Below, in pieces: positions 15,820 to 63,027 of a stretch of 64,000 nt of DNA (position 1 is its first letter; every line of letters starts with the position of its first letter). The stretch covers positions 209,777 to 273,776 of the forward strand of contig JAFGCJ010000002.1 in the NCBI GenBank assembly GCA_016932785.1, read 5' to 3'. The position numbers were made by a program, and so were the translations under genes. The notes beneath the pieces were generated by a model. The model was given only the letters and a program-made list of their open reading frames with translations, did no database searches and was not told the origin of the DNA. The stretch comes from Candidatus Dojkabacteria bacterium. Lineage in GTDB: Bacteria; Patescibacteriota; Dojkabacteria; SC72; JAFGCJ01.

Positions 15820-16821
15820 CTACCATTTTGAGCTGCTTCCGCCTCCACCAAATGAACCCCCTCCGCTACTAAATCCTCCAGAAGATCCACCAGAAGAACT
15901 GCTAAACCCGGAGCTAGAAAAACTTCTAGAAGAAAATCCTCCCAGACTCCTTACAAAACCCGTTCCAATGCCTCTTTTCTTTCTAACCTTGTAGTTTTTG
16001 GAGAGAATATAGTCGAAAACCAATCCGAGCACTGTTAAAACAGGAGCCAACCCAAAGAAACTCAGGAAACCCCATGCCCCCAATGCTCCCGATAATCCCA
16101 GCCAAACCGAAGCTGCTACAGATAGTCCAAAGCCAACGACTCCTCCCATCCACCAGCTTCTCGTTCGACCAAGAAACGCTGACATATATGGCAATACTAT
16201 AAACAAGAAAACAGCTCCACAGATCATGGCCTGAACACCAAACGATCCTCCATTTTCTTTTTTCAGATCAGCACTGCTATACTCCCCGGTAACAGCCTCC
16301 ATAATCGCTTCTACTCCTTTTTCAATACCCGTACTGTAGTCTCCTTCTTTAAAGTACGGCTTTACAACATCCTCCTGAATTTCCTGCGTTTCCAGATCGG
16401 TAAGTGCTCCCTCAAGTCCGTATCCTACATCAATCCTCATCTCGCGATCATCGATTACAATGGTAAATATAACGCCATTATCATATTCTTCCTGCCCTGC
16501 CGCCCATTCCGGGTTTCTATCTGTCAGTGCGGGAATGAATTCGTCGATTAGGAAGTCTTCGGGAAGCTTATTTACCGTAATTACAAGTATTTGAGTCGAT
16601 TCTTTCTCGTCAAATTGCTCTAATTTAGAATCAAGCTGCTCATCGTTATTAATGACATTAGCAAAGTCATTGACGTATTTGCCTTCAGGGTCTGGAAAAT
16701 CAATGGGGTCTGCAGCCGATACTTCAGCCACATTTATACCGACTAGAACAACTGTAAATATTAACGATATGGCAAGCGAAGATAGAACTTTCTTAAGCAT
16801 TCTTTTCGAGAGAGTATTCAA
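15820..16821 (-). CDS. TPM-domain membrane protein with Gly/Ser-rich tail
   Basis: Signal peptide, a TPM-like block (DNGVIFTIVIDDREMRIDVGYGLEGALTD), TM segments and a GGSSGGFSSGGGSFGGGG tail. It lies next to LemA, a known pairing. Confidence 0.8.
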   Translation of the reverse strand: MNTLSKRMLKKVLSSLAISLIFTVVLVGINVAEVSAADPIDFPDPEGKYVNDFANVINNDEQLDSKLEQFDEKESTQILVITVNKLPEDFLIDEFIPALTDRNPEWAAGQEEYDNGVIFTIVIDDREMRIDVGYGLEGALTDLETQEIQEDVVKPYFKEGDYSTGIEKGVEAIMEAVTGEYSSADLKKENGGSFGVQAMICGAVFLFIVLPYMSAFLGRTRSWWMGGVVGFGLSVAASVWLGLSGALGAWGFLSFFGLAPVLTVLGLVFDYILSKNYKVRKKRGIGTGFVRSLGGFSSRSFSSSGFSSSSGGSSGGFSSGGGSFGGGGSSSKW

Positions 16822-31041: not shown

Positions 31042-31118
31042 TGGGGTGGAAGGTGGGAGTTGAACCCACAACAACCTGTACCACAAACAGGCGCTCTGCC
31101 AATTAAGCTACTTCCACC
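31042..31118 (-). tRNA. tRNA-His (anticodon GTG), with encoded G-1, C73 and CCA
   Basis: Manual cloverleaf: G-1 then GTGGAAG/CTTCCAC acceptor, anticodon arm CCTGT-TTGTGGT-ACAGG, T arm GTGGG-TTCAACT-CCCAC, and a C-CCA end. Confidence 0.9.
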
Positions 31119-45037: not shown

Positions 45038-45120
45038 GCCGCTGTGGCGGAATGGCAGACGCGCTACGTTCAGGACGTAGTCCTTTTCGGAGGGTGAGGG
45101 TTCAACTCCCTCCAGCGGCA
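45038..45120 (+). tRNA. tRNA-Leu (anticodon CAG), class II
   Basis: Manual fold: acceptor GCCGCTG/CAGCGGC, anticodon arm CTACG-TTCAGGA-CGTAG, a long variable arm, and T arm GAGGG-TTCAACT-CCCTC. Confidence 0.9.
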
Positions 45121-45189
45121 TGAAGAATGACTCATAACCATTACGAGAAGGTCAGATTGCATAACCGTACTCAGTAAAAATTGTGAAAT

Positions 45190-46806
45190 CTATTTACCCG
45201 AAGTAAGAGTAATTTTTATATTGTTGGTATCCTTATCTCCTTCTTCCTTAAACTTCTTCAAAAACTGCTCTTTTGAATAGACCTTTCCTTTCTCAGGTTT
45301 ATCATTTCCTTCATCTTTATCAGATCTGTCTTTTTCTTTTGTATTTTCTGACTGATCTTTTTTATCATCACCACTCTTTTCTTTGGGTGACTTCTCGTCT
45401 CCCTTGCTTGTATTTTTTTCTTTATCATTTTTCGTCTTAGATTTTTCTGCGTCTGAGCCAGAATCCTCAGGGTTGACACATTCAGACTTTTCTTTTTCAT
45501 CACGTTTAGAATCTTTCTTTTTACTTTTCTCTTTCTTCTTTCCAGAATCCTTGCTGCTCTCAACCTTCTTATCTCCCACCCCCACTCCAAGACTTGCAAA
45601 TTTCTCCCTTAATGAAGGAGTTTGACCGTTATTCTTTTTCTCCATAAGTTCTTCTGATTTCTTAAATAATTTCTCAGAAATCTCTCCCGAGTCCCTCTTC
45701 TTAAAGACACTTACAGTCATTCTTCCTATAAGAACAAGCAAAAGCCCTGCTAACACAGCAAAACCTGCAAGAACAAGATAGATGTTATCCTCGGTTATAA
45801 TATTTTGTATAGAAAACCCCTCGTCATTTCCATCAGAATCTGAGTCCCCTCCAGATTTTTTCCCAACTGAAAACTCAAACACATCTGAGAAATTACTTGC
45901 GTAACCGTCCTTTCTTACCAAAGCTACAGCTGAGTGATCACCTGAAGACACCTCATCATCAATAACAGTCTCCCAATTGCCATCCTTATCTACATCAATC
46001 ACAGTTGTAATGACATCACTGCTAACCATAAGCACAACCTTTGAATTCGGTAAAGCCGTACCAGACAATTCAACCTCTTCATTGCTCTTAAAGTCCTTTT
46101 TCTGTTCATCACTGAATGCTGGAGGTCTCGGTATAACAATAATTGTCTCCTCTAAATACTGCGTAACCTCTTCCTCGTCTTTAAACTTGAAGTTAATAGT
46201 GTGCTTGCCTATGGAAAGCGATGGAAGAATGAATGGGCTTTTCTTTTTACTCATCCCTTCTCCATCAACTTGGATTTCGACACCATCTTCTGTGGGTTCA
46301 ACAAAAGTAATTGCATAGTTGGGATTATCGGTCTCCTCCGGAAGCTGCAATTTCAGAAGGTCGCGAATCTTCTGCCTTCTCTCCTCCTCGACATCATCTA
46401 CTACACTATCTACTTCATCTGAGTTATCATCTGCTTCAGCCACAACTTGATTCTCAGATTCATCTGTATCACTAGATTCAGATGAATCCTGATCTTCTCT
46501 AGAGCTACCAGTAGAATCCGAACCAAGGTCTACTTCGGAAAAAACCCCTAGAACCCTTTCGGTATCATCGTATACACTCATTTCCGTATGCAAAATATCT
46601 TCAGCTTTATCCATAAGCTTATTTACCTCACTAAATCTTGTATAGAAAAACAATCCCGCTGCACTGGTAAAACAAATCAGGGTTACCCAATAGAGAATTG
46701 CTGCCTTATCACTTAAATTATTATTTGGATTTAAAGTTTCCTCAACCGCAAGAGGCTTAAGCTCCTTCTTTTTACTTTTCTTTTCCTTGTTTTTCCCTTT
46801 TTTCAT
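45190..46806 (-). CDS. membrane protein with an Ig-like domain and a Lys/Asp/Glu-rich low-complexity tail
   Basis: N-terminal and mid-protein TM helices. VDKDGNWETVIDDEV resembles the repeats in 19967-20974. The C-terminus is an extended KEKS/DK low-complexity stretch. Confidence 0.6.
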   Translation of the reverse strand: MKKGKNKEKKSKKKELKPLAVEETLNPNNNLSDKAAILYWVTLICFTSAAGLFFYTRFSEVNKLMDKAEDILHTEMSVYDDTERVLGVFSEVDLGSDSTGSSREDQDSSESSDTDESENQVVAEADDNSDEVDSVVDDVEEERRQKIRDLLKLQLPEETDNPNYAITFVEPTEDGVEIQVDGEGMSKKKSPFILPSLSIGKHTINFKFKDEEEVTQYLEETIIVIPRPPAFSDEQKKDFKSNEEVELSGTALPNSKVVLMVSSDVITTVIDVDKDGNWETVIDDEVSSGDHSAVALVRKDGYASNFSDVFEFSVGKKSGGDSDSDGNDEGFSIQNIITEDNIYLVLAGFAVLAGLLLVLIGRMTVSVFKKRDSGEISEKLFKKSEELMEKKNNGQTPSLREKFASLGVGVGDKKVESSKDSGKKKEKSKKKDSKRDEKEKSECVNPEDSGSDAEKSKTKNDKEKNTSKGDEKSPKEKSGDDKKDQSENTKEKDRSDKDEGNDKPEKGKVYSKEQFLKKFKEEGDKDTNNIKITLTSGK

Positions 46807-46884
46807 TGGTATTAAAGTAACACAATTATGTTATATAGTCAACGAAATATATATCTCATTGAACAACCCGGTAAATCTAGAAAT

Positions 46885-48612
46885 TCAAATACCCGAAACG
46901 ACATAGCCCTCAATTCTATCAGCGTCTGCACCAGTCACAACCCTAGGCTGAGCACCCTCAAATGTCATCGTCGGGATCAATTCATATCCTACATACCGAT
47001 CTTCATAGAAATAATGTCTAACCATAACTCCTTCACGAGTTTCCTGAGACCACATCTGATCGAAAAGAAAGTTACCCAGACTGTAGAAAACCAGTCCGTT
47101 ATTGTAATACTCGACAGGTTGAACCCAATGAGGATGAACACCAGTAACAATATCAGCCCCGGCATCAATGGCCGCTCGTCCATATTCATATTGATATCCA
47201 ATAGGCTCATGCTGGTATTCCGCTCCCCACTGCATGTCAACAAAAACAAAATCCGCCTTCTCTTTTGCTGAGGTAATCGCGGATACCATCTTAGTCTTAT
47301 TCATTTCGGCCGATCCAGGCGTAGTACTAGTAGCATAATAATCGGCAGGAGGTATAGCATTAAACCCGAGGAATGCGAACTTCAATCCATTGATCTCGAT
47401 AACAGCTGGCGTAAAGGCCTCCGTCTCATTTCTTCCACCTCCGAAATATTTGATCCCAGCCCCGTCATACATATCAAGCGTTTTAATAAAATTCTCGCTT
47501 CCATAATCGAGAATATGGTTGCCGGTAAGCCCAATCACGTCGATCCCGGCATATTTAAATGCCTCGAACGACCCGACAGTACCGCAGAAAACCAAAGTCC
47601 CCTGATATTGCACACAATTCTCAGTAAAAGAGGCCTCATTGCTTACATGAGCAATATCTGCCTGCTCAAGAATACTGGCAACCTCCCTGACCGGATATAG
47701 GTTGTCTCCCGTAGCTACAATTTTCTGGTACAGACCGCGGGCCCCCATAACGGAAGTACCTGTTAGTACAACAGATGTAACCTTTTCCGAATCATAATTA
47801 ACACTTCCAAGCATATCCTGTACCTCGGAGAAAAGCCTGATATCCTTGTGATCATTGTCTTCTTTGACCCAAATCCTATCTACTAAGGCATAGTCATCCT
47901 CCTCAGCCATATTCAAAAGCGAAACATTTTCGACAGAAACCAATTTTGTCCTCGCCGAAAAGTCTCCAAAAGGAAGAATTGCTATTACTTTAGGATTACT
48001 TTTCACCTCAGCTATACCACTACTGACAACTTTCACCGTCACCCCTATTCCGAACTCACGCTCCATGTAACTCTCAGCGTCACTGTCAATCACAACCGAA
48101 TATCCCTTATTCGTCAAATCATTCGGTGTTCCCCCAAGAAGCTGTTCTAGCTGGCCCATCGAAAGATTTGATAGTCCAGACTTGACGTTAACAACGATAA
48201 AATAAAATCTCTCCCAGGCCAACTCCATTTTCCCTTCATCACTCGAGGAAACAACAAGATCACAATCTTTACCAGGTTCCTTATCGAACTGCCTCGTGCT
48301 TATTATTATTTCCTTGTCGGAATCCTCCGGTTCATATGAATCCACCCAAGCCTCAAGCTCATCTGTAAACCCAGAAGACAGTGTCTTATCAATACAAAGA
48401 TGAACTTCCTTTCTTTCCTCCTTGGATCCAAATGATAGCCGATCAGAAAGAGCTTTCAGCTGGCCCTCAAATGGAATTCCATATTTTTTTACATAAAAAA
48501 ATCCTATTACCACGATAAGAAGAACTCCCAGCGTTGCAAAAATCACGCCTCTGGGAATATTCCTCCTATTCTCTTTCGGAAGTTTTACTTTAAGGTCTCT
48601 TGTAATTGCCAC
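46885..48612 (-). CDS. CapA family (PGA_cap metallophosphatase-like) protein, TM-anchored
   Basis: GNHILDYG, VDMQWGAEYQHEP, GADIVTGVHPHWVQP and YSLGNFLFDQ blocks. Confidence 0.75.
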   Translation of the reverse strand: MAITRDLKVKLPKENRRNIPRGVIFATLGVLLIVVIGFFYVKKYGIPFEGQLKALSDRLSFGSKEERKEVHLCIDKTLSSGFTDELEAWVDSYEPEDSDKEIIISTRQFDKEPGKDCDLVVSSSDEGKMELAWERFYFIVVNVKSGLSNLSMGQLEQLLGGTPNDLTNKGYSVVIDSDAESYMEREFGIGVTVKVVSSGIAEVKSNPKVIAILPFGDFSARTKLVSVENVSLLNMAEEDDYALVDRIWVKEDNDHKDIRLFSEVQDMLGSVNYDSEKVTSVVLTGTSVMGARGLYQKIVATGDNLYPVREVASILEQADIAHVSNEASFTENCVQYQGTLVFCGTVGSFEAFKYAGIDVIGLTGNHILDYGSENFIKTLDMYDGAGIKYFGGGRNETEAFTPAVIEINGLKFAFLGFNAIPPADYYATSTTPGSAEMNKTKMVSAITSAKEKADFVFVDMQWGAEYQHEPIGYQYEYGRAAIDAGADIVTGVHPHWVQPVEYYNNGLVFYSLGNFLFDQMWSQETREGVMVRHYFYEDRYVGYELIPTMTFEGAQPRVVTGADADRIEGYVVSGI

Positions 48613-48649
48613 TTTCGGATACTAAAAGCTAATCTTGAAGCGGAACATT

Positions 48650-49156
48650 CTAGCAATAAGTAATAGTCTTTGTATCGGTAACCTTATCTATCCAAAGAAT
48701 ACCTTCCAAGTGATCATACTCGTGCTGGATATAAACAGCAAATTCACCCGAGAATATTTCCTTATGTGATATTTCCTTCCGATCTTGGTATTTAAGTTCA
48801 ATCTCTGAATACCTTTTTACCTCGCCTCCAATGCTGGGAGTACTGAGACAACTTTCAAAACCTGTGACAAGTTCATTAGTAGTGATTTCAATTTCTGGAT
48901 TTATATAAACATTGAAGCCGGGATTTGCAGAAGTTGCACCGGGCTTCATTATGAGAAAAACTCTCGTAGATTTATTAACCTGAGGAGCCGCAAGCCCTGC
49001 TGTTAAGTAACCAGCCTCAGGTTTTTGACAGGCAGTTTCAATCATATCATCAAGAAACTGCTGGAATTGCTTTGATTTAATGTCATCTGTGGGAACCGGT
49101 TGTGCTTTTTGCCGAAGTATTGGGTTTCCCATTAGAGCTATATCAAGTACTGCCAT
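48650..49156 (-). CDS. def: peptide deformylase
   Basis: GLAAPQV, ESCLS (the EGCLS position) and HEYDHLEG (HExxH). I chose the ATG at 49156 (MAVLDI...). Confidence 0.88.
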   Translation of the reverse strand: MAVLDIALMGNPILRQKAQPVPTDDIKSKQFQQFLDDMIETACQKPEAGYLTAGLAAPQVNKSTRVFLIMKPGATSANPGFNVYINPEIEITTNELVTGFESCLSTPSIGGEVKRYSEIELKYQDRKEISHKEIFSGEFAVYIQHEYDHLEGILWIDKVTDTKTITYC

Positions 49157-49228
49157 AGTAATGGAATGATAGCATAACAGAGGTTCATATTGAAATATAA
49201 GCACAACCATAACTAAAGTTGTTTTCAG

Positions 49229-49257
49229 TTGACACCATTCATACAGAAGAGTACAAT
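49229..49257 (+). promoter_or_regulatory. near-consensus sigma70-type promoter (TTGACA-17 nt-TACAAT)
   Basis: TTGACAccattcatacagaagagTACAAT. It is followed by the tandem GTTACAAA-tt-GTTACAAA at 49269-49286. Confidence 0.55.
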
Positions 49258-49689
49258 AATACTATAGGGTTACAAATTGTTACAAAACTGCTCTTTCAGA
49301 CGTTTAATATGCAGTAAAGGCCTCAGCAACAGGCTTTTATTGCCTATTTAACATTTTGTTAAAAGGCGGGGTATATTTGCATTTTTTTATAAAAAGCGCA
49401 GATTACCGTTCTTTAACATCCAAAGAGTTAGCTAGTTAAATCTATCCCCTGACAAAAAACAAATCCTATGGGTAAGCCTAAAAAGCCGCCGACCGCTAGG
49501 TCTGTGATTTTTTAGGCTTGCTCTTGGTTTGTTTCTGACTGTCATAGGTTCCTCCCCAGAAAAACTTATGTCCGGTAATGGACTGTTAATCATAGGAAGG
49601 AGGTGGAAACTGGGGGGTAGAAAGGAAGAATAACACCAGCGGGAACGAAGCAAGAGAAAGTCGAAAATACTCTAGAGAAAGGATATAAG

Positions 49690-50823
49690 ATGAACAAGAA
49701 AACGAGATTCTTTATTGCCCTAGCCTTAGGCTTGGGCCTGTTATTGGTTGTTTTGGTTCTCCCCGGAGGCCAAGATGTGACCGCTGCTCCGGCGGCCCCT
49801 GCCGCGGGAGGTGCTTCATATGTGTCCTCGTTCGTCTCTGGGACCCAATTCTGCGTTCGAACGATGGACCCGATAATCGGCGTTGGAGGATGGGCATCTG
49901 TTTCGCCATGGATCTCCAACTGGTTATTGCCGACAAATCCTTTCTCCCAGACATTCGATAGTCAAGGACAGACGTGCTGGGAGATCACCGATCCAGACAG
50001 CCATCCACATGATGGCCCCTGGTACGGCGCATTCTATCAGCTGGAGCACTGGCAGAAAATGCAAGGCTATAGCTACAGAATGCTGGAGGGAGGATCCGAA
50101 AGTCAACTATGGTTTGGGGAGGGAACGAGATCTAGTGATATCCCCCTCGGACCAAGATACGGAAGGATCCAGGTAAGCAATGGACTCGTTCAAATCACGG
50201 CAGTCCCAAGCACAACAGTGAACAACTCAAGCGGCACCTACATTTTCCGAGTATCAGAAGCCACAACGGCAGTGCTTGAAATGCCTCTAGATGTTGTTAT
50301 TGTCACAGGACCGTTCACCGGCAATCTAGAGAGTGTTATCCCCGAAAATGGAGAGTTGACCTTCAACAAATCCGGGGACTGGGTGGTTGGCCTGGTCGAG
50401 CAGCCGATTCGCGTAAGCTATACATCGGCAATTACCGAGGCAACACCCGGAGAGGTTGTAACTGTCACTGCCATAGTCGAGAACGTCGGGACAGAAACGT
50501 TGACCGATGTCGCAACACTGGAGGAATTCTGTCCAGAAATTCTGAAAGGCGGGCCTCACGGCATTGTATGTGTTCCGGACGCTAGCGGTCACTGCGATAC
50601 CACTTCGTGGAATCAGTACGTAGGAGACCTTACCTCAGGGGAATCAACTACATATACCCTACAGGTAACGCTCTACAGTGAGGCCGAACCAGGCCTGATT
50701 CATAATTCATGCAGTACGAAGGCAATCTGGAACGACATGCAGGATTACAAGTACATCATCGGCGACAGCATTCAGATTTTCGCTCTATGGCGTACTTACC
50801 TTCCCATCACACTAAACAACTAG
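49690..50823 (+). CDS. secreted protein, C-terminal DUF11/CARDB-like domain, compositionally foreign (GC-rich)
   Basis: Signal peptide FFIALALGLGLLLVVLVL. ATPGEVVTVTAIVENVGTETLTDV resembles DUF11/CARDB repeats. Two sample 60-mers counted 60% and 53% GC, against about 33% in neighbouring core genes. Confidence 0.7.
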   Translation: MNKKTRFFIALALGLGLLLVVLVLPGGQDVTAAPAAPAAGGASYVSSFVSGTQFCVRTMDPIIGVGGWASVSPWISNWLLPTNPFSQTFDSQGQTCWEITDPDSHPHDGPWYGAFYQLEHWQKMQGYSYRMLEGGSESQLWFGEGTRSSDIPLGPRYGRIQVSNGLVQITAVPSTTVNNSSGTYIFRVSEATTAVLEMPLDVVIVTGPFTGNLESVIPENGELTFNKSGDWVVGLVEQPIRVSYTSAITEATPGEVVTVTAIVENVGTETLTDVATLEEFCPEILKGGPHGIVCVPDASGHCDTTSWNQYVGDLTSGESTTYTLQVTLYSEAEPGLIHNSCSTKAIWNDMQDYKYIIGDSIQIFALWRTYLPITLNN

Positions 50824-50840
50824 CAACTAAACTCTTTGGA

Positions 50841-50880
50841 TTGGCGGGCCCAGTGGCTCAAAAAACACCGGGTCCGCCAA
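50841..50880. terminator. 11-bp GC-rich hairpin between convergent genes
   Basis: TTGGCGGGCCC-18 nt-GGGTCCGCCAA with one G-U pair. There is no clean U-tract, so function as a terminator is inferred from position only. Confidence 0.4.
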
Positions 50881-50919
50881 CCAATTACATCTTCTCAATT
50901 AAAACTCATCACAAACAAC

Positions 50920-51450
50920 CTAATCAGCCGGCACATCCCGATATTTCTTAATAATACTCTCAACAATCGCACTCGTAGATGGATACTGAGGAGTATCAAT
51001 AGAAATCAGACTTGCGCCAATTTCAATAGCCTCCTCTTTAACCTCATCGACAAAATTAAAACCCCGGCCAATAGTTATAAGATCGACCCCGAGATCCACA
51101 TACAATTTTCTATACTCACTTGCACTAAAACCCGTATCATTAAGAAAAACCGCATCAACACCTTTCACCTCACTAATTATCTCCATCCTTTCCTTCTCAC
51201 CATTTATTGGCCTTTTATAGGATTTATATTTTGCAACATTTTCATCTGAATCAATACCTACTATGAAATAGTCACACATGCGTGCCGACTCCTGAAGAAG
51301 ACACAGATGAGAGATATGGAAAAGGTCGAAAGCTCCGTGTGTAAGCCCTACTTGAACACCCTGACGTCTGAGATCCCGCGCAACCTGAAACAAAGTCTCT
51401 TTTGAAAAGATATTCTTGTGAGATACTGACGGCCTACGGTAAAGTTTCAT
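50920..51450 (-). CDS. cytidylyl/adenylyltransferase-family (HIGH-type nucleotidyltransferase) protein
   Basis: THGAFDLFHISH matches the GxFDxxHxGH-type motif of the TagD/RfaE-II family. Confidence 0.65.
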   Translation of the reverse strand: MKLYRRPSVSHKNIFSKETLFQVARDLRRQGVQVGLTHGAFDLFHISHLCLLQESARMCDYFIVGIDSDENVAKYKSYKRPINGEKERMEIISEVKGVDAVFLNDTGFSASEYRKLYVDLGVDLITIGRGFNFVDEVKEEAIEIGASLISIDTPQYPSTSAIVESIIKKYRDVPAD

Positions 51451-51649
51451 ACTAGCGGATATTATACTGAGAACTAAAGCGGATGAGAAGGCTTATTTTT
51501 ACCAAAAGATGATTCAAGTTGCATGGGCATTATATGTATGCGTAACTTTAGGCTTCTTTGAAATTAATTGTGTATAATTATTGCAAACATATATAGATAC
51601 GTGTAAAGTATCTTTGTTGTTTTTGAAAATTAGGCTGGATTTTGATCGT

Positions 51650-51727
51650 GGTGGATGTAGCTCAATTGGTTAGAGCGCCTGTTTGTGGCACAGGAGGTTG
51701 AGGGTTCGAGTCCCTTCTTCCACCCCA
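51650..51727 (+). tRNA. tRNA-His (anticodon GTG), second divergent copy, with G-1, C73 and CCA encoded
   Basis: Manual fold: G-1 then GTGGATG/CTTCCAC acceptor (a U6-U67 mismatch), anticodon arm CCTGT-TTGTGGC-ACAGG, T arm GAGGG-TTCGAGT-CCCTT. Confidence 0.8.
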
Positions 51728-53191
51728 GTTTTCATTTTCGATAGCAGATTCCACAGAAACCATATGAGACCAAGGTTCTTTGAAGTTCCAACCAACTTCT
51801 TTATCGTCTAGCGTTAAACCTTCGCTTATAGACATCACTATTTTCCTCTTCTCTTCAAGAGTGCCGTTACTAAAGACTTCCTGTAGACCGAAGCATTGTT
51901 CGTAAAAAAGTTCCAACGACTCACGCACATCGTCTCTGTTGTACTTCACATCACCTCTGAGTTCTTCGAGTTCACTGACTCTCTTGTTTAATATTTCTTT
52001 CTGGTCCAGATACTCATCTTTTGTCAGCTCGCCCTCAATTCTCATACTCAGAATTTTGTCTAGTTTTTGTAGGGTATCAGATAGTTGATTTTCTATCTCC
52101 TCACGCCGATCACATTCCTGTGAAAAATCGACCTCAAGCTGTTTTCTAGTCTTTTCCTTTAGAATCTCCAGATACTTTTTTGAAAGTGAAATCTTAGAAA
52201 TATGCCCAACAAACTGATCTTCCAAATCTTCTGCTCTAATTGGTTTGTTGTCACACTTACCTCTTCGCTTCGTGCAACAGTAATATGTATAGGGCTTGTC
52301 GTTCTTATATTTTGTATATGCAGTTATTGCACAACCACACCTTGGACACTTCATTATTCCTTTGAAAGGATGGTAATGCCTGCTTTGATATGGCTTAGAG
52401 TCGTCGTCCAGGACTTCTTGTAATTCAAGCCACTTCTGTTTTGTAATTAGCGGCTCCCATTTACCTTTATCGCTTTCATCATTTACATCTTCAAAATAGC
52501 CACAGTATGACGGTTTTCGTAGGAGTCTATGTAATTCTGATTTAACGAAATGCTTCCCTCGGCGGGTCTTTACGTCCCATTCATACAACAGATTTACAGC
52601 TTGAACAAGGTTTAATCTATTCGAAATAATCTCATCAACAAGACGGACATAGAACTTAGAGGTTTTGGGATTTGGAGCTATGTTCTTCTTCCCTTTCTCT
52701 GTTCCCATATTTATGTAAAACGCTGGAGCATAAGAGCACCATTCCCCTCGTTTTCTCTTCTCTCTGAGTCCCCTTTTGGTATTAATACTAAGCTCTCTTG
52801 AGTATTGAGCATTTGAACCAAATTCGACTCCTAAAAGGATATCGTTGGCGTTCTCGTTGGTAATGCTTCTATATCGGGTACGAATTTCAAGAAGTTTCCC
52901 GTCAGTTAGCAACTGCATAATAATGCCTGACTCTTGCGGATTGCGGCTTAGACGGTTTGTATGCCAGATTAGAACCCTTTTACAATGCCCCTTCTTGATA
53001 TTCTCGATCAATTCATTGAAACCATCACGTTGTCCTGGCTTTCTAGCAGACTTCGATTCCTTGATGATTCTGGCTATTTTGAGGCTGTTCTCAGCGGCAT
53101 ATTCCTTTAACTCCCTCTCCTGAGCCGGTAAGGACAGTGCCTGCTTCTCTGAACTTTCACTAGATTTTCGACAATAACAAAAATACTCCAT
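51662..53191 (-). CDS. large serine recombinase (integrase-type)
   Basis: N-terminal resolvase block YCRKSSESSEKQALSLPAQ and VLIWHTNRLSRN. There is also a recombinase domain, a zinc ribbon CPRCG...CCTKRRGKC and a coiled coil. The last ~22 codons are antisense to tRNA-His. Confidence 0.9.
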   Translation of the reverse strand: MEYFCYCRKSSESSEKQALSLPAQERELKEYAAENSLKIARIIKESKSARKPGQRDGFNELIENIKKGHCKRVLIWHTNRLSRNPQESGIIMQLLTDGKLLEIRTRYRSITNENANDILLGVEFGSNAQYSRELSINTKRGLREKRKRGEWCSYAPAFYINMGTEKGKKNIAPNPKTSKFYVRLVDEIISNRLNLVQAVNLLYEWDVKTRRGKHFVKSELHRLLRKPSYCGYFEDVNDESDKGKWEPLITKQKWLELQEVLDDDSKPYQSRHYHPFKGIMKCPRCGCAITAYTKYKNDKPYTYYCCTKRRGKCDNKPIRAEDLEDQFVGHISKISLSKKYLEILKEKTRKQLEVDFSQECDRREEIENQLSDTLQKLDKILSMRIEGELTKDEYLDQKEILNKRVSELEELRGDVKYNRDDVRESLELFYEQCFGLQEVFSNGTLEEKRKIVMSISEGLTLDDKEVGWNFKEPWSHMVSVESAIENENWGGRRDSNPQPPVPQTGALTN

Positions 53192-53288
53192 TACAATACT
53201 ATTTATATATATTCATTATATAATATTCCCATATAATATCCAGTATATATTGCCAATATATTTTCCATATAAGAATATCAATATTATG

Positions 53289-53675
53289 TTACTTATCACT
53301 CTTGTCATGCTCATCTCCGAGAACTTCCTCTAAAGTGATCTCTTTCTCTTCTTCAGATACAATTCCTCTCTCTATGTCGCCAGTAAGGGATTCGTTGTAC
53401 TTCTTCACTTCTTTCAGATATGCGTTTTTCACTGAATTTTCGTAATTTCGCCATTCGTCTTTGTCTTCGATCCTGACGATATTCAGATACTTACTTCCGC
53501 AACGAACGGACGGAGGTACAACTCTAAGGGAATCTTCAGATAATGAAGACCTCATAACACGAAAACCAATAATGATAAGTCCTGAATATCTCAACTCTAC
53601 CTGAGCTAACATATCACCTTTTTGATTCAGAATTATCTTGATTTTAGCCTTTTTAATATCAAACTTTTCTTCCAT
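53289..53675 (-). CDS. SpoVG-like small nucleic-acid-binding protein (tentative)
   Basis: The pattern AQVELRYSGLIIIGFRVMRSS...LRVVPPS resembles the SpoVG core. This is from memory of the family pattern only. Confidence 0.35.
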   Translation of the reverse strand: MEEKFDIKKAKIKIILNQKGDMLAQVELRYSGLIIIGFRVMRSSLSEDSLRVVPPSVRCGSKYLNIVRIEDKDEWRNYENSVKNAYLKEVKKYNESLTGDIERGIVSEEEKEITLEEVLGDEHDKSDK

Positions 53676-53759: not shown

Positions 53760-53915
53760 CTACATCTTCGCCGGTGCTGAGGCCGCCTTGTTATTATGCA
53801 TATCATTTCCTTTCACTGCTAAATTTAGATACAAGCCCCGCTTTATTTGGTTACAAATTATTTTTGCTATGGTTTCAATGTCTTCGATTTGTTCAGGAGT
53901 GAGGTCATATTCCAT
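53760..53915 (-). CDS. unlisted 51-codon ORF MEYDLTPEQIEDIETIAKIICNQIKRGLYLNLAVKGNDMHNNKAASAPAKM
   Basis: I found it by manual translation. Its ATG overlaps the stop of the upstream ORF (ATGGAATATGA). It is below the track length cut-off. Confidence 0.35.
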   Translation of the reverse strand: MEYDLTPEQIEDIETIAKIICNQIKRGLYLNLAVKGNDMHNNKAASAPAKM

Positions 53916-54204
53916 CAATAAACTCCTTCCATTCTGGCGGTATATAGGCTGTCTTTCTTGGGATATCTTTATAGAAGCCGGAAATACGAATACCCCTCAT
54001 GACCTGATTCCTATTCCAGGTGTATCGAGGAGTTCTGTGATAGCCGTAATGAAGAATAAAGTAGAGAAGTGCGTAGTCGCCTATCAGAGATATGCGTTTT
54101 TCTTTTCTGAGGGCTTTAAAAACTCCAGAGAATGAACGGTTGGGGTTGGATGAAAGAAGTCGCTCAAGTACATCCTGAAGACTTGTAGCCGTTTGGTATT
54201 GCAC
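53905..54204 (-). CDS. hypothetical protein (99 aa)
   Basis: Co-oriented with the element block. The overlapping plus-strand ORF 53722-54135 looks like low-quality sequence. Confidence 0.45.
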   Translation of the reverse strand: MQYQTATSLQDVLERLLSSNPNRSFSGVFKALRKEKRISLIGDYALLYFILHYGYHRTPRYTWNRNQVMRGIRISGFYKDIPRKTAYIPPEWKEFIDGI

Positions 54205-54306
54205 TGATGTTCAACCTAATCTTAGATATAAACATCTAAATACCACGAATGAAAATGAAAACTACTAAATAACTTCTTAAAAAGTTCTTAGAAAAATCTC
54301 GACTGA

Positions 54307-58302: not shown

Positions 58303-58329
58303 AGTTCCAAAATCCGTCCCACCACCTAC
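58303..58329 (+). repeat. C-rich cassette-boundary repeat, copy 1 (right part missing)
   Basis: AGTTCCAAAATCCGTCCCACCACCTAC. Identical to copy 2 over 32 nt when 5 nt of left flank are included. Confidence 0.85.
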
Positions 58330-58342
58330 GCTAGACATAAAA

Positions 58343-59099: not shown

Positions 59100-59133
59100 A
59101 GTTCCAAAATCCGTCCCACCACCTACCCCAAAA
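59100..59133 (+). repeat. C-rich cassette-boundary repeat, copy 2
   Basis: AGTTCCAAAATCCGTCCCACCACCTACCCCAAAA. Confidence 0.85.
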
Positions 59134-60254: not shown

Positions 60255-60288
60255 AGTTCCAAAACCCTTCCCACCACTTACCCCAAAC
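60255..60288 (+). repeat. C-rich cassette-boundary repeat, copy 3
   Basis: AGTTCCAAAACCCTTCCCACCACTTACCCCAAAC. It is followed by TTTACT-17 nt-TATAAT upstream of the ATG at 60362. Confidence 0.85.
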
Positions 60289-62993: not shown

Positions 62994-63027
62994 AGTTCCA
63001 AAATCCATCCCTCCACTTACCCCAAAA
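62994..63027 (+). repeat. C-rich cassette-boundary repeat, copy 5
   Basis: AGTTCCAAAATCCATCCCTCCACTTACCCCAAAA. Confidence 0.8.

Follow-up and report, generated by a model that had tools for sequence, protein, structure and literature searches.

Serine integrases are widely used as genome-engineering tools and, to our knowledge, are generally thought not to target tRNA genes. Mageeney et al. (2020) counted 14 of 297 serine integrases as users of tRNA genes, all of them unverified cases, and described this use as previously unreported (PMC7192596); in the preprint by Durrant et al. surveying large serine recombinases (LSRs), the word tRNA is absent. Two further systems come close to the locus treated here, positions 51650-53191 of a 64-kb window (the whole stretch of Candidatus Dojkabacteria DNA that was analyzed), where the gene of an LSR runs antisense into a gene for tRNA-His. 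These are the SSV1-type integrases, described in a review as confined to archaea (PMC8371274), and the tycheposons of Prochlorococcus, of which 910 out of 937 use tyrosine recombinases (bioRxiv 10.1101/2020.12.28.424599). Full-text literature searches yielded no paper joining LSRs, tRNA targets and Patescibacteria, nor was a published description found of tRNA-targeting LSRs with the element's attachment site, attP, inside the open reading frame (ORF).

How does the Dojkabacteria locus compare? By our reading of its sequence, it holds a serine integrase specific for tRNA ends, with attP inside its ORF, which belongs to a large family in Patescibacteria and is accompanied by an unusual array of five element arms. 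The stretch 51650-53191 very probably represents the attL junction of a small, non-phage integrative element, whose LSR would have recombined its ORF-internal attP with an attB located in the 3' part of tRNA-His. The anatomy of the junction, the family-wide association with tRNA genes, a circular form and the restriction of identity to a short core could be read directly in the sequence analysis.

A recombinase gene ending inside a tRNA gene

The two overlapping genes are the following.

51662..53191, minus strand: large serine recombinase gene, 509 aa, assigned by Pfam domains, conserved residues, AF2 model and Foldseek
51650..51727, plus strand: tRNA-His(GTG) copy 2 (ARAGORN 51651-51727, encoded G-1 at 51650; Rfam 66.8 bits)

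The encoded protein carries the Pfam domains Resolvase (PF00239, E 8e-21), Recombinase (PF07508) and Zn_ribbon_recom (PF13408). Across 31 aligned sequences the catalytic residues Y6, R8, S10, R80 and R83 are invariant, as are the zinc-ribbon cysteines Cys282, 285 and 313, with Cys306 nearly so. The AlphaFold (AF2) model, with a mean predicted local distance difference test score (pLDDT) of 79.6, comprises a catalytic domain, a recombinase domain, a zinc ribbon and a long coiled coil (338-455); its last structured elements are residues 459-477, and pLDDT is <50 for 482-509. Foldseek ranks highest a serine integrase in complex with att sites, Bxb1, PhiC31 and the LSR-DNA crystal structure 4kis (E 1e-18 to 1e-11, probability 1.0); at the sequence level, likeness to solved structures is very remote (best PDB match E 7e-6), and an exact-sequence lookup of the recombinase found no record. 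Judged by domains, residues and predicted fold, the protein is an intact but divergent LSR. No tyrosine integrase (Phage_integrase) was found, the sole recombinase being of the serine type.

Residues 1-490 are encoded by the element, and residues 491-509 together with the stop codon (51721-51662) are antisense tRNA. The earlier note on this DNA had the recombinase reading antisense through the tRNA for about 22 codons; the antisense reading stands, and the overlap with copy 2 amounts to the final 21 codons (WGGRRDSNPQPPVPQTGALTN) plus the stop.

Substantiating a specific arrangement is its recurrence throughout the family. A protein search returned 234 relatives of the recombinase, of which the few with names belong to Patescibacteria, and a scan of 185,579 GTDB species-representative genomes (one per species) gave 417 stretches encoding relatives. 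Seventy-nine loci were fetched, 73 of which include the ORF end and 100 nt beyond. At 55 of these 73, mostly from Patescibacteria, the end of the recombinase ORF meets an antisense tRNA: the stop codon lies inside the antisense tRNA at 45, and at a further ten the ORF either borders on a tRNA or traverses one completely. As the background density in these loci is only about one tRNA per 9 kb, the overlap is not a matter of chance. Fourteen isotypes are represented (His 23, Gln 5, Met, Trp and Asp 4 each, Asn 3, eight others), and elsewhere the targeted His gene stands within host tRNA clusters, His-Arg-Asp-Leu in L002 and His-Arg in L010, L025, L041, L050 and L053. At L003 (11456-11578) the recombinase reads into a 24-nt tRNA-His 3' fragment, with a full tRNA-His lacking an encoded CCA about 25 nt further on.

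Alignment with homologues, a check suggested in the earlier note, revealed where the recombinase normally ends. The C-termini are conserved up to '...NF.WG' and then split into three classes: an immediate stop (P0002, P0003, P0018); an antisense-tRNA tail such as GGRWDSNPQPSVPQTDALTN (P0006, P0009-P0011, P0013, P0017 and the window); and an element-type tail WG-x-[LW]-x-[DE]-x-[FI]-x-N (P0004, P0005, P0007, P0008, P0012, P0016, P0022). Among homologues, antisense-tRNA tails occur only in tRNA contexts, and the free circular form described below has an element-encoded tail. With attP inside the ORF, these tails bear out the suggestion that the recombinase C-terminus was fused to host sequence.

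To locate the crossover, four kinds of site, compared in 8 or more loci, were aligned on a common hexamer, namely recombinase-end sites (attL), far-end sites (attR), tandem junctions and the free form. In the window the parts of attL are as follows.

51722..51727, plus strand: core hexamer ACCCCA (tRNA 71-76; TGGGGT on the recombinase strand, encoding W489-G490), from site comparison
51704..51721, plus strand: B arm, the host half-site (tRNA T-arm and acceptor 3' strand), from motif offsets
51728..51760, plus strand: P' arm, the element half-site in the recombinase 3' coding region (...AIENEN), from sequence and side-of-core homology

The hexamer ACCCCA corresponds to A71, C72, C73 and C74-C75-A76 of tRNA-His. 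To its left stands either the recombinase 3' end (P') or an unrelated flank (B'), and to its right either antisense tRNA (the B arm) or a conserved P arm; whether in attL, attP or tandem junctions, homologous recombinase ends keep to one side of the core. TGGGGT alone is common to attL and attR in the window, L083, L081, L003, L010, L025 and L028; in L025, for example, attR reads GG-TGGGGT-CA and attL TA-TGGGGT-GG. The near-identical recombinases P0012 and P0016 part exactly after the WG codons.

The contig encoding P0016 (L087, 13,190 nt) contains no tRNA and has a 127-nt direct overlap of its termini, from which we take it to be circular. Its recombinase ORF runs from P' through TGGGGT into the P arm, so that attP lies inside the ORF. 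The left arm of this attP matches the attL left arm of L089 at 21 of 30 positions, against 9/30 for attR, and its right arm matches the attR right arm of L089 at 29 of 36, against 13/36 for attL. Since attP thus equals the left of attL joined to the right of attR, the switch falls inside the hexamer; and since attL, attR and attP share TGGGGT only, the crossover lies within the last six bases of the tRNA. Because the last bases, supplied by the element, are the same in both partners, the tRNA keeps its sequence on integration, and in the window a full-length tRNA-His abuts the element, its gene left intact. These sites and the family-wide pattern support the earlier note's view of the recombinase as part of an element integrated at this tRNA.

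Both arms carry two spaced motifs. On the recombinase strand of the window, the B arm has an inner GGGA at +8..+11 and an outer GAAC at +15..+18 from the core, the latter being the T-loop GTTC at 51704-51707. Across the arms compared, 10/11 B arms and 18/19 P arms have the inner GGGA or TGGA at +8. The outer GAAC, which in the B arms corresponds to the universal T-loop GTTC on the opposite strand, stands at +15 in every one of the 11 B arms, and 18/19 P arms have it at +20/21. The B' flanks, on the side away from the tRNA, have no consensus. Rutherford et al. (2013) placed the zinc-ribbon motif of LSR sites 5 bp nearer the centre in attB than in attP (PMC3783163). The P arm would accordingly be an imperfect copy of the tRNA arm plus a spacer of 5-6 bp, which fits the canonical site discrimination of LSRs.

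In the window the P' arm now forms the 3' trailer of the tRNA (GTTTTCATTTTC...). In two relatives a hairpin with a T-run stands on the tRNA strand directly after the tRNA CCA, within the 3' coding end of the recombinase (L010 11530-11570, L025 11520-11570), and a similar hairpin and T-run is seen in the displaced native flank at attR (L010 1290-1335, L025 2310-2360). The element seems to replace the tRNA terminator, too.

These observations suggest a scenario in which strands are exchanged within ACCCCA (71-76), presumably at AC (71-72). The host would contribute tRNA positions 1 to ~72, and the element an identical C73-CCA end with a new 3' trailer. The recombinase would retain all of its folded domains (1 to ~480) and exchange only a short tail predicted to be disordered, the free-circle tail 'x-W/L-x-D/E-x-F/I-x-N' giving way in the chromosome to 19 residues of antisense tRNA. 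The host arm could be recognized through tRNA features, the inner GGGA at +8 and the T-loop GTTC at +15, and the far arm of the element would mimic this layout with its outer motif 5-6 bp further out, by which attP might be told from attB. Beyond this, we infer a history of serial insertions, and the element may still be active.

The host tRNA and its unpaired acceptor position

ARAGORN calls six tRNA genes in the window, and two of them are tRNA-His(GTG), as the earlier note had it; both were also scored with the Rfam tRNA model. The second gene is:

31042..31118, minus strand: tRNA-His(GTG) copy 1 (ARAGORN 31042-31117, encoded G-1 at 31118; Rfam 65.1 bits)

Judged by the sites described above, copy 2 is the integration target and forms the attB side of attL; beside copy 1, neither a recombinase nor att features were found. 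The acceptor strands GTGGAAG/CTTCCAC of copy 1 are paired throughout, and those of copy 2, GTGGATG/CTTCCAC, leave a U-U mismatch of T6 (51656) and T67 (51718). The 3'-terminal 11 nt, CTTCCACCCCA, are the same in both. On these points sequence comparison agrees with the earlier note, which had also put the differences between the copies at about 15; we count 12 (11 substitutions and one indel). Folded in silico, copy 2 reaches -24.1 kcal/mol (z -0.24) and copy 1 -30.4 kcal/mol (z -2.8). Eight of the 11 nt in common with copy 1, CCACCCCA, recur in 13 of 18 compared tRNA-His genes.

Did integration create the mismatch? The earlier note had proposed that an element-borne 3' end was swapped in, with the mismatch as the result, and this did not hold up. 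T67 lies four bases to the host side of the core hexamer, and as the identity of the att sites is confined to ACCCCA, T67 is host DNA. Pairing was further counted on the cloverleaf in an alignment of ten tRNA-His genes belonging to this recombinase clade (named loci: window, L080, L090, L081, L089, L004, L001, L083, L053), in which 97.3% of the cells are paired. Two-sided changes occur at 5:68, 6:67 and 7:66 in 5, 2 and 1 sequences, respectively; with positions 66-68 co-varying with 5-7 in this way, the acceptor 3' strand tracks the 5' strand of each host. The P arms of the elements are not complementary to host 5' strands (in L083, for instance, CACTGAC vs GTGGCTA). T6/T67 is also seen in L080 and L090, and T6/G67 in L081. 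These three genomes are non-syntenic, and their tRNAs have diverged elsewhere by compensatory changes, such as A-T or T-A at 50:64 and an anticodon stem of CCTGT/ACAGG or CCTCT/AGAGG. Given the recurrence of T6/T67 in the diverged L080 and L090, and with positions 66-68 following the 5' strand of the host, the mismatch was not left behind by integration; on this comparative evidence it is an old, pre-existing, lineage-conserved trait of the host tRNA-His. The question raised by the mismatch thus has an ordinary answer.

The remains that a swap would leave were also sought. A displaced tRNA 3' fragment, which the earlier note expected as ...CATCCACCCCA, is absent from the window by exact patterns, patterns with 1-3 mismatches and short-word BLAST, and the far-end sites have no more than 6 nt in common with the tRNA and are otherwise imperfectly similar to it. 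A deeper crossover in the T-loop, with the repeated arms as displaced tRNA ends, was considered and rejected: the far-end arms are conserved between elements, show no complementarity to the host 5' strand and agree with the arm of the circular attP in 29/36 positions. For the comparison with an empty site, a metagenome scan with the 45-nt 5' half of copy 2 was carried out; no empty site emerged, the single match being L080, where a 78-aa C-terminal fragment of a recombinase, ending ...KWGGRWDSNPQPPVPQTGALTN, persists as a relic. Every mismatch-bearing tRNA found, three in all, adjoins a recombinase or a recombinase relic. Outside the source genome, the best relative of the flanking host protein is only 54% identical.

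The element and its repeated arms

To the left of the junction lie ordinary host genes at host GC (guanine-cytosine) content (a cytidylyltransferase at 50920-51450 and a deformylase). To the right of the recombinase, the ORFs have a GC content of 0.34-0.38 against ~0.41 elsewhere; they gave no informative Pfam or PHROG match and include no phage hallmark genes, and no relative of the recombinase was found among the viral contigs of IMG/VR. From this gene content, the element looks like a cryptic integrative or plasmid-like element and not a prophage. Its features next to the recombinase are:

53215..53242, minus strand: promoter-like site TGGATA-16-TATAAT, found by consensus scan only, in an AT-rich gap that precedes the start codon of the recombinase
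53289..53675, minus strand: 128-aa ORF with tblastn matches beside the recombinase in L081-L084, L032, L002 and L005; no Pfam/PHROG match
53905..54204, minus strand: 99-aa ORF with tblastn matches in the related elements L005, L032 and L002
55405..56019, minus strand: 204-aa Cys-rich ORF with tblastn matches in >20 related loci; no Pfam/PHROG match

The 204-aa ORF lies a few hundred bases upstream of the recombinase in >20 related loci, making it a candidate for an accessory factor in directionality or replication. LSRs join attP and attB by a 2-bp staggered cut and require a directionality factor for excision; no candidate for such a factor was identified, though the 128-aa and 204-aa ORFs are conserved. 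Two weaker similarities to the recombinase gene were noted in the window. The stretch 16065-16142 on the minus strand bears a faint likeness to recombinase residues 457-479 with three queries (E 0.9-2.5) and could be a relic of another element. At 54251-54263 on the plus strand, in an intergenic gap, there is a 13-nt exact inverted copy of the recombinase end GAAAATGAAAACT (BLAST E 0.15), which may be due to chance; tried as attR, it was rejected, as it has neither core nor P-arm features.

Further out, between 58298 and 63038, the P-arm pattern occurs five times, each copy 30-36 nt long, always on the recombinase strand and in intergenic positions, 0.7-2 kb apart. On the minus strand it reads TGGGGT-nnn-TGGTGGGA-n-GG-n-TTTTGGAAC, and the five sites bracket single ORFs and a HIT/cupin gene pair.

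58304..58333, minus strand: P-arm site c1, with the degenerate core TAGCGT and the arm AGGTGGTGGGACGGATTTTGGAAC, the same as in c2
59101..59130, minus strand: P-arm site c2, with the intact core TGGGGT
60256..60285, minus strand: P-arm site c3, with an outer flank, TACTATGGGGTT, similar to the one at the outermost attR of L081
60944..60973, minus strand: P-arm site c4, by pattern match
62995..63024, minus strand: P-arm site c5, the outermost, by pattern match

No further copy is present in the 9.85 kb past the window end (L091). Elsewhere, a search of 1.5 Mb of loci gave one occurrence of the pattern per element, invariably on the strand of the recombinase; in L083, L003, L010, L025 and L028 it lies 5-10 kb from that gene. 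In other elements the motif is fused to the WG codons of the recombinase. The repeats might also be taken for the N-termini of small peptide genes ('WGxWWxGFWNY'); this was rejected, since c2 and c4 have in-frame stops just upstream and the downstream sequence is not conserved, so that they represent DNA sites. The element with the recombinase most likely has its attR at c2 (or c1) and would then measure ~7.4 kb; elements in L081, L083, L003, L010, L025 and L028 measure 5.5-10 kb.

What could have produced five arms? In L081 (10001-20693), two complete elements stand in tandem on one tRNA-His. L089 has three P arms, each after '..NWG' codons; in L090 the P arm has a recombinase relic of 55 aa on its left, and L080 retains only the recombinase relic beside tRNA-His. 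By analogy, the five arms at 58.3-63.0 kb are probably an attR and the relics of serial insertions at the same tRNA, the older units having decayed. No recombinase relics were found beside c1-c5 by tblastn.

As for cargo, restriction-modification systems occur in relatives (L087, L089). In the L087 circle, HsdR, HsdM and HsdS make up a full system of type I, next to which there is an HTH_17 gene on the same contig. The two recombinases of L081 are only ~24% identical. P0008, which lies upstream, forms a fusion with the P arm of the downstream element, and the latter has an N6_N4 methyltransferase and a ResIII helicase among its cargo.

Logan contigs from the same organism, L092 (window 45052-51678) and L091 (59097 onward), end inside tRNA-Leu, inside copy 2 and exactly at the c1/c2 repeat. 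The last of these breaks fits a ~32-nt exact stretch common to c1 and c2, the causes of the breaks in the tRNAs being uncertain. For excision, the Logan contigs of the source sample are evidence neither for nor against.

Competing readings and related systems

Several points weigh against integration as set out here. The ten aligned tRNAs have six unpaired cells, every one of them in the acceptor stem (three at 6:67, two at 7:66, one at 2:71) and to the host side of the crossover, whereas all 140 cells in the other three helices are paired. The model leaves this excess unexplained. As no unoccupied copy of a tRNA-His of the copy-2 type turned up, the native 3' end is known by inference only. 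The shift of the outer motif by 5-6 bp is a pattern in sequence only; the attP of the window element itself is not at hand, and which of c1-c5 is its attR is uncertain. Finally, recombination of attP with attL or attR is not normal for LSRs, and stacked arrays would require relaxed recognition on the B'/P' side.

One rival reading places the crossover 5' of position 66, by which a copy-1-type 3' end carried by the element (CTTCCACCCCA, 11 nt or longer) would have been swapped in and made the mismatch. Acceptor-stem mismatches are indeed frequent in tRNA-His beside the closest recombinase clade (window, L080, L090, L001, L004, L089); the 11 nt shared with copy 1 agree with a swap, and the c1/c2 arm, if taken as a tRNA end (CACCTAC), would put A67 opposite T6 as its partner. 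We nevertheless consider it highly improbable: a 6-nt core is all that attL, attR and attP share, near-identical recombinases part right after the WG codons, P arms are conserved whatever the host acceptor and do not complement its 5' strand, positions 66-68 co-vary with that strand, and the window holds no CATCCACCCCA fragment. The weaker folding of the mismatched copy 2 (-24.1 vs -30.4 kcal/mol) could instead mark it as an accessory or decaying tRNA from an older mobile element, used as a landing pad, with copy 1 as the canonical gene. Two tRNA-His genes 20 kb apart in a small-genome lineage, and copy-2-type tRNAs in non-syntenic contexts (window, L080, L090, L081), would suit such an origin. 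It is improbable given the ordinary host genes at host GC on the left flank, stems outside the acceptor that are fully paired with compensatory changes as in a working tRNA, an Rfam score as good as that of copy 1, and the place of the target His gene in host tRNA clusters at other loci. That the overlap means nothing, the recombinase gene merely lying beside a tRNA with no earlier stop codon, has a virtually negligible probability. Extensions of ORFs antisense to tRNAs are a common artefact and the tail is predicted to be disordered, but 55 of the 73 related loci repeat the geometry, the point of divergence is fixed at the WG codons, and a circular form with matching attL and attR exists.

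A different question is posed by the array, where recombinase and P arms might form an integron-like cassette system, in which recombinase-less units of 1-3 genes and one P arm are moved in trans at the tRNA end. We regard this as a minor possibility. Five same-strand sites 0.7-2 kb apart, three such sites in L089, the missing consensus on the side of the site away from the tRNA or P arm and the lack of recombinase relics between the sites of the window agree with it. Against it stand the two complete stacked elements of L081, the decaying recombinase ends in L090 and L080, and the inner sites of L089, each of which follows '..NWG' codons as relics of full elements would; free mini-circles were not seen.

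Beyond this locus, we tentatively suggest, as a possibility to which we attach limited confidence, that Patescibacteria harbor a large and apparently undescribed LSR family with tRNA 3' ends as attB, in which the ORF-internal attP makes the protein tail report, and possibly control, the state of integration, and in which relaxed recognition on the non-tRNA side yields a reusable site and integron-like stacks. Such a family would read a near-universal tRNA feature, the T-loop GTTC with the acceptor end, as one arm of attB and swap the last few bases only. Natural enzymes whose landing sites are predictable, conserved and harmless would then be available, along with a clean natural test of the 5-bp attP/attB rule. 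The loci compared here also bring to light a main class of integrative elements in Patescibacteria, whose mobile DNA is poorly known.

Among the described systems, the PhiC31, Bxb1, A118/LI and TP901-1 integrases share the set of domains and the fold, as well as short att sites with few central bp in common. The outer motif ~5 bp further out in the attP half-site than in attB is likewise a trait of phage and element LSRs (PMC3783163). Unlike in these, the target here is a tRNA 3' end, with the T-arm and acceptor strand as host arm; the recombinase ORF contains attP, elements form tandem stacks, and the sequence is very remote. With the tRNA islands of tyrosine integrases (Islander/TIGER type), the locus has in common integration at a tRNA 3' end, restoration of the gene, an adjoining integrase gene and tandem arrays; it differs from them in its serine recombinase and in a repeat of 6 bp with no displaced tRNA fragment. 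The integron, with IntI, attI and attC cassettes, is matched only in the array of short units, there being no tyrosine integrase and the repeats being half-sites of the LSR type.

For mycobacteriophage BPs, attP is said to lie in the 3' end of the gene, with free and integrated forms differing at the C-terminus. The integration-dependent immunity of BPs and its relatives also involves an attP within a gene whose product, a repressor, is altered by integration (PMC4557955). In contrast to BPs, with its repressor gene, tyrosine integrase and known functional consequence, it is here the recombinase itself that is concerned, and the exchange of the tail is seen in sequence only. Tycheposons resemble the locus as small cargo elements stacked at tRNA genes, a minority of them with LSRs; the host phylum is another, and an ORF-embedded attP or a core-and-arm architecture is not mentioned in the available part of the preprint (bioRxiv 10.1101/2020.12.28.424599). 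The 'suicidal' integrases of the SSV1 type, finally, have attP inside the integrase ORF as well (PMC8371274). Their gene, encoding a tyrosine enzyme, is split and inactivated, whereas in this bacterial serine recombinase the domains remain contiguous and only a disordered tail of ~20 aa is exchanged. The locus thus exemplifies a recombinase gene that spans its own attachment site without being inactivated.

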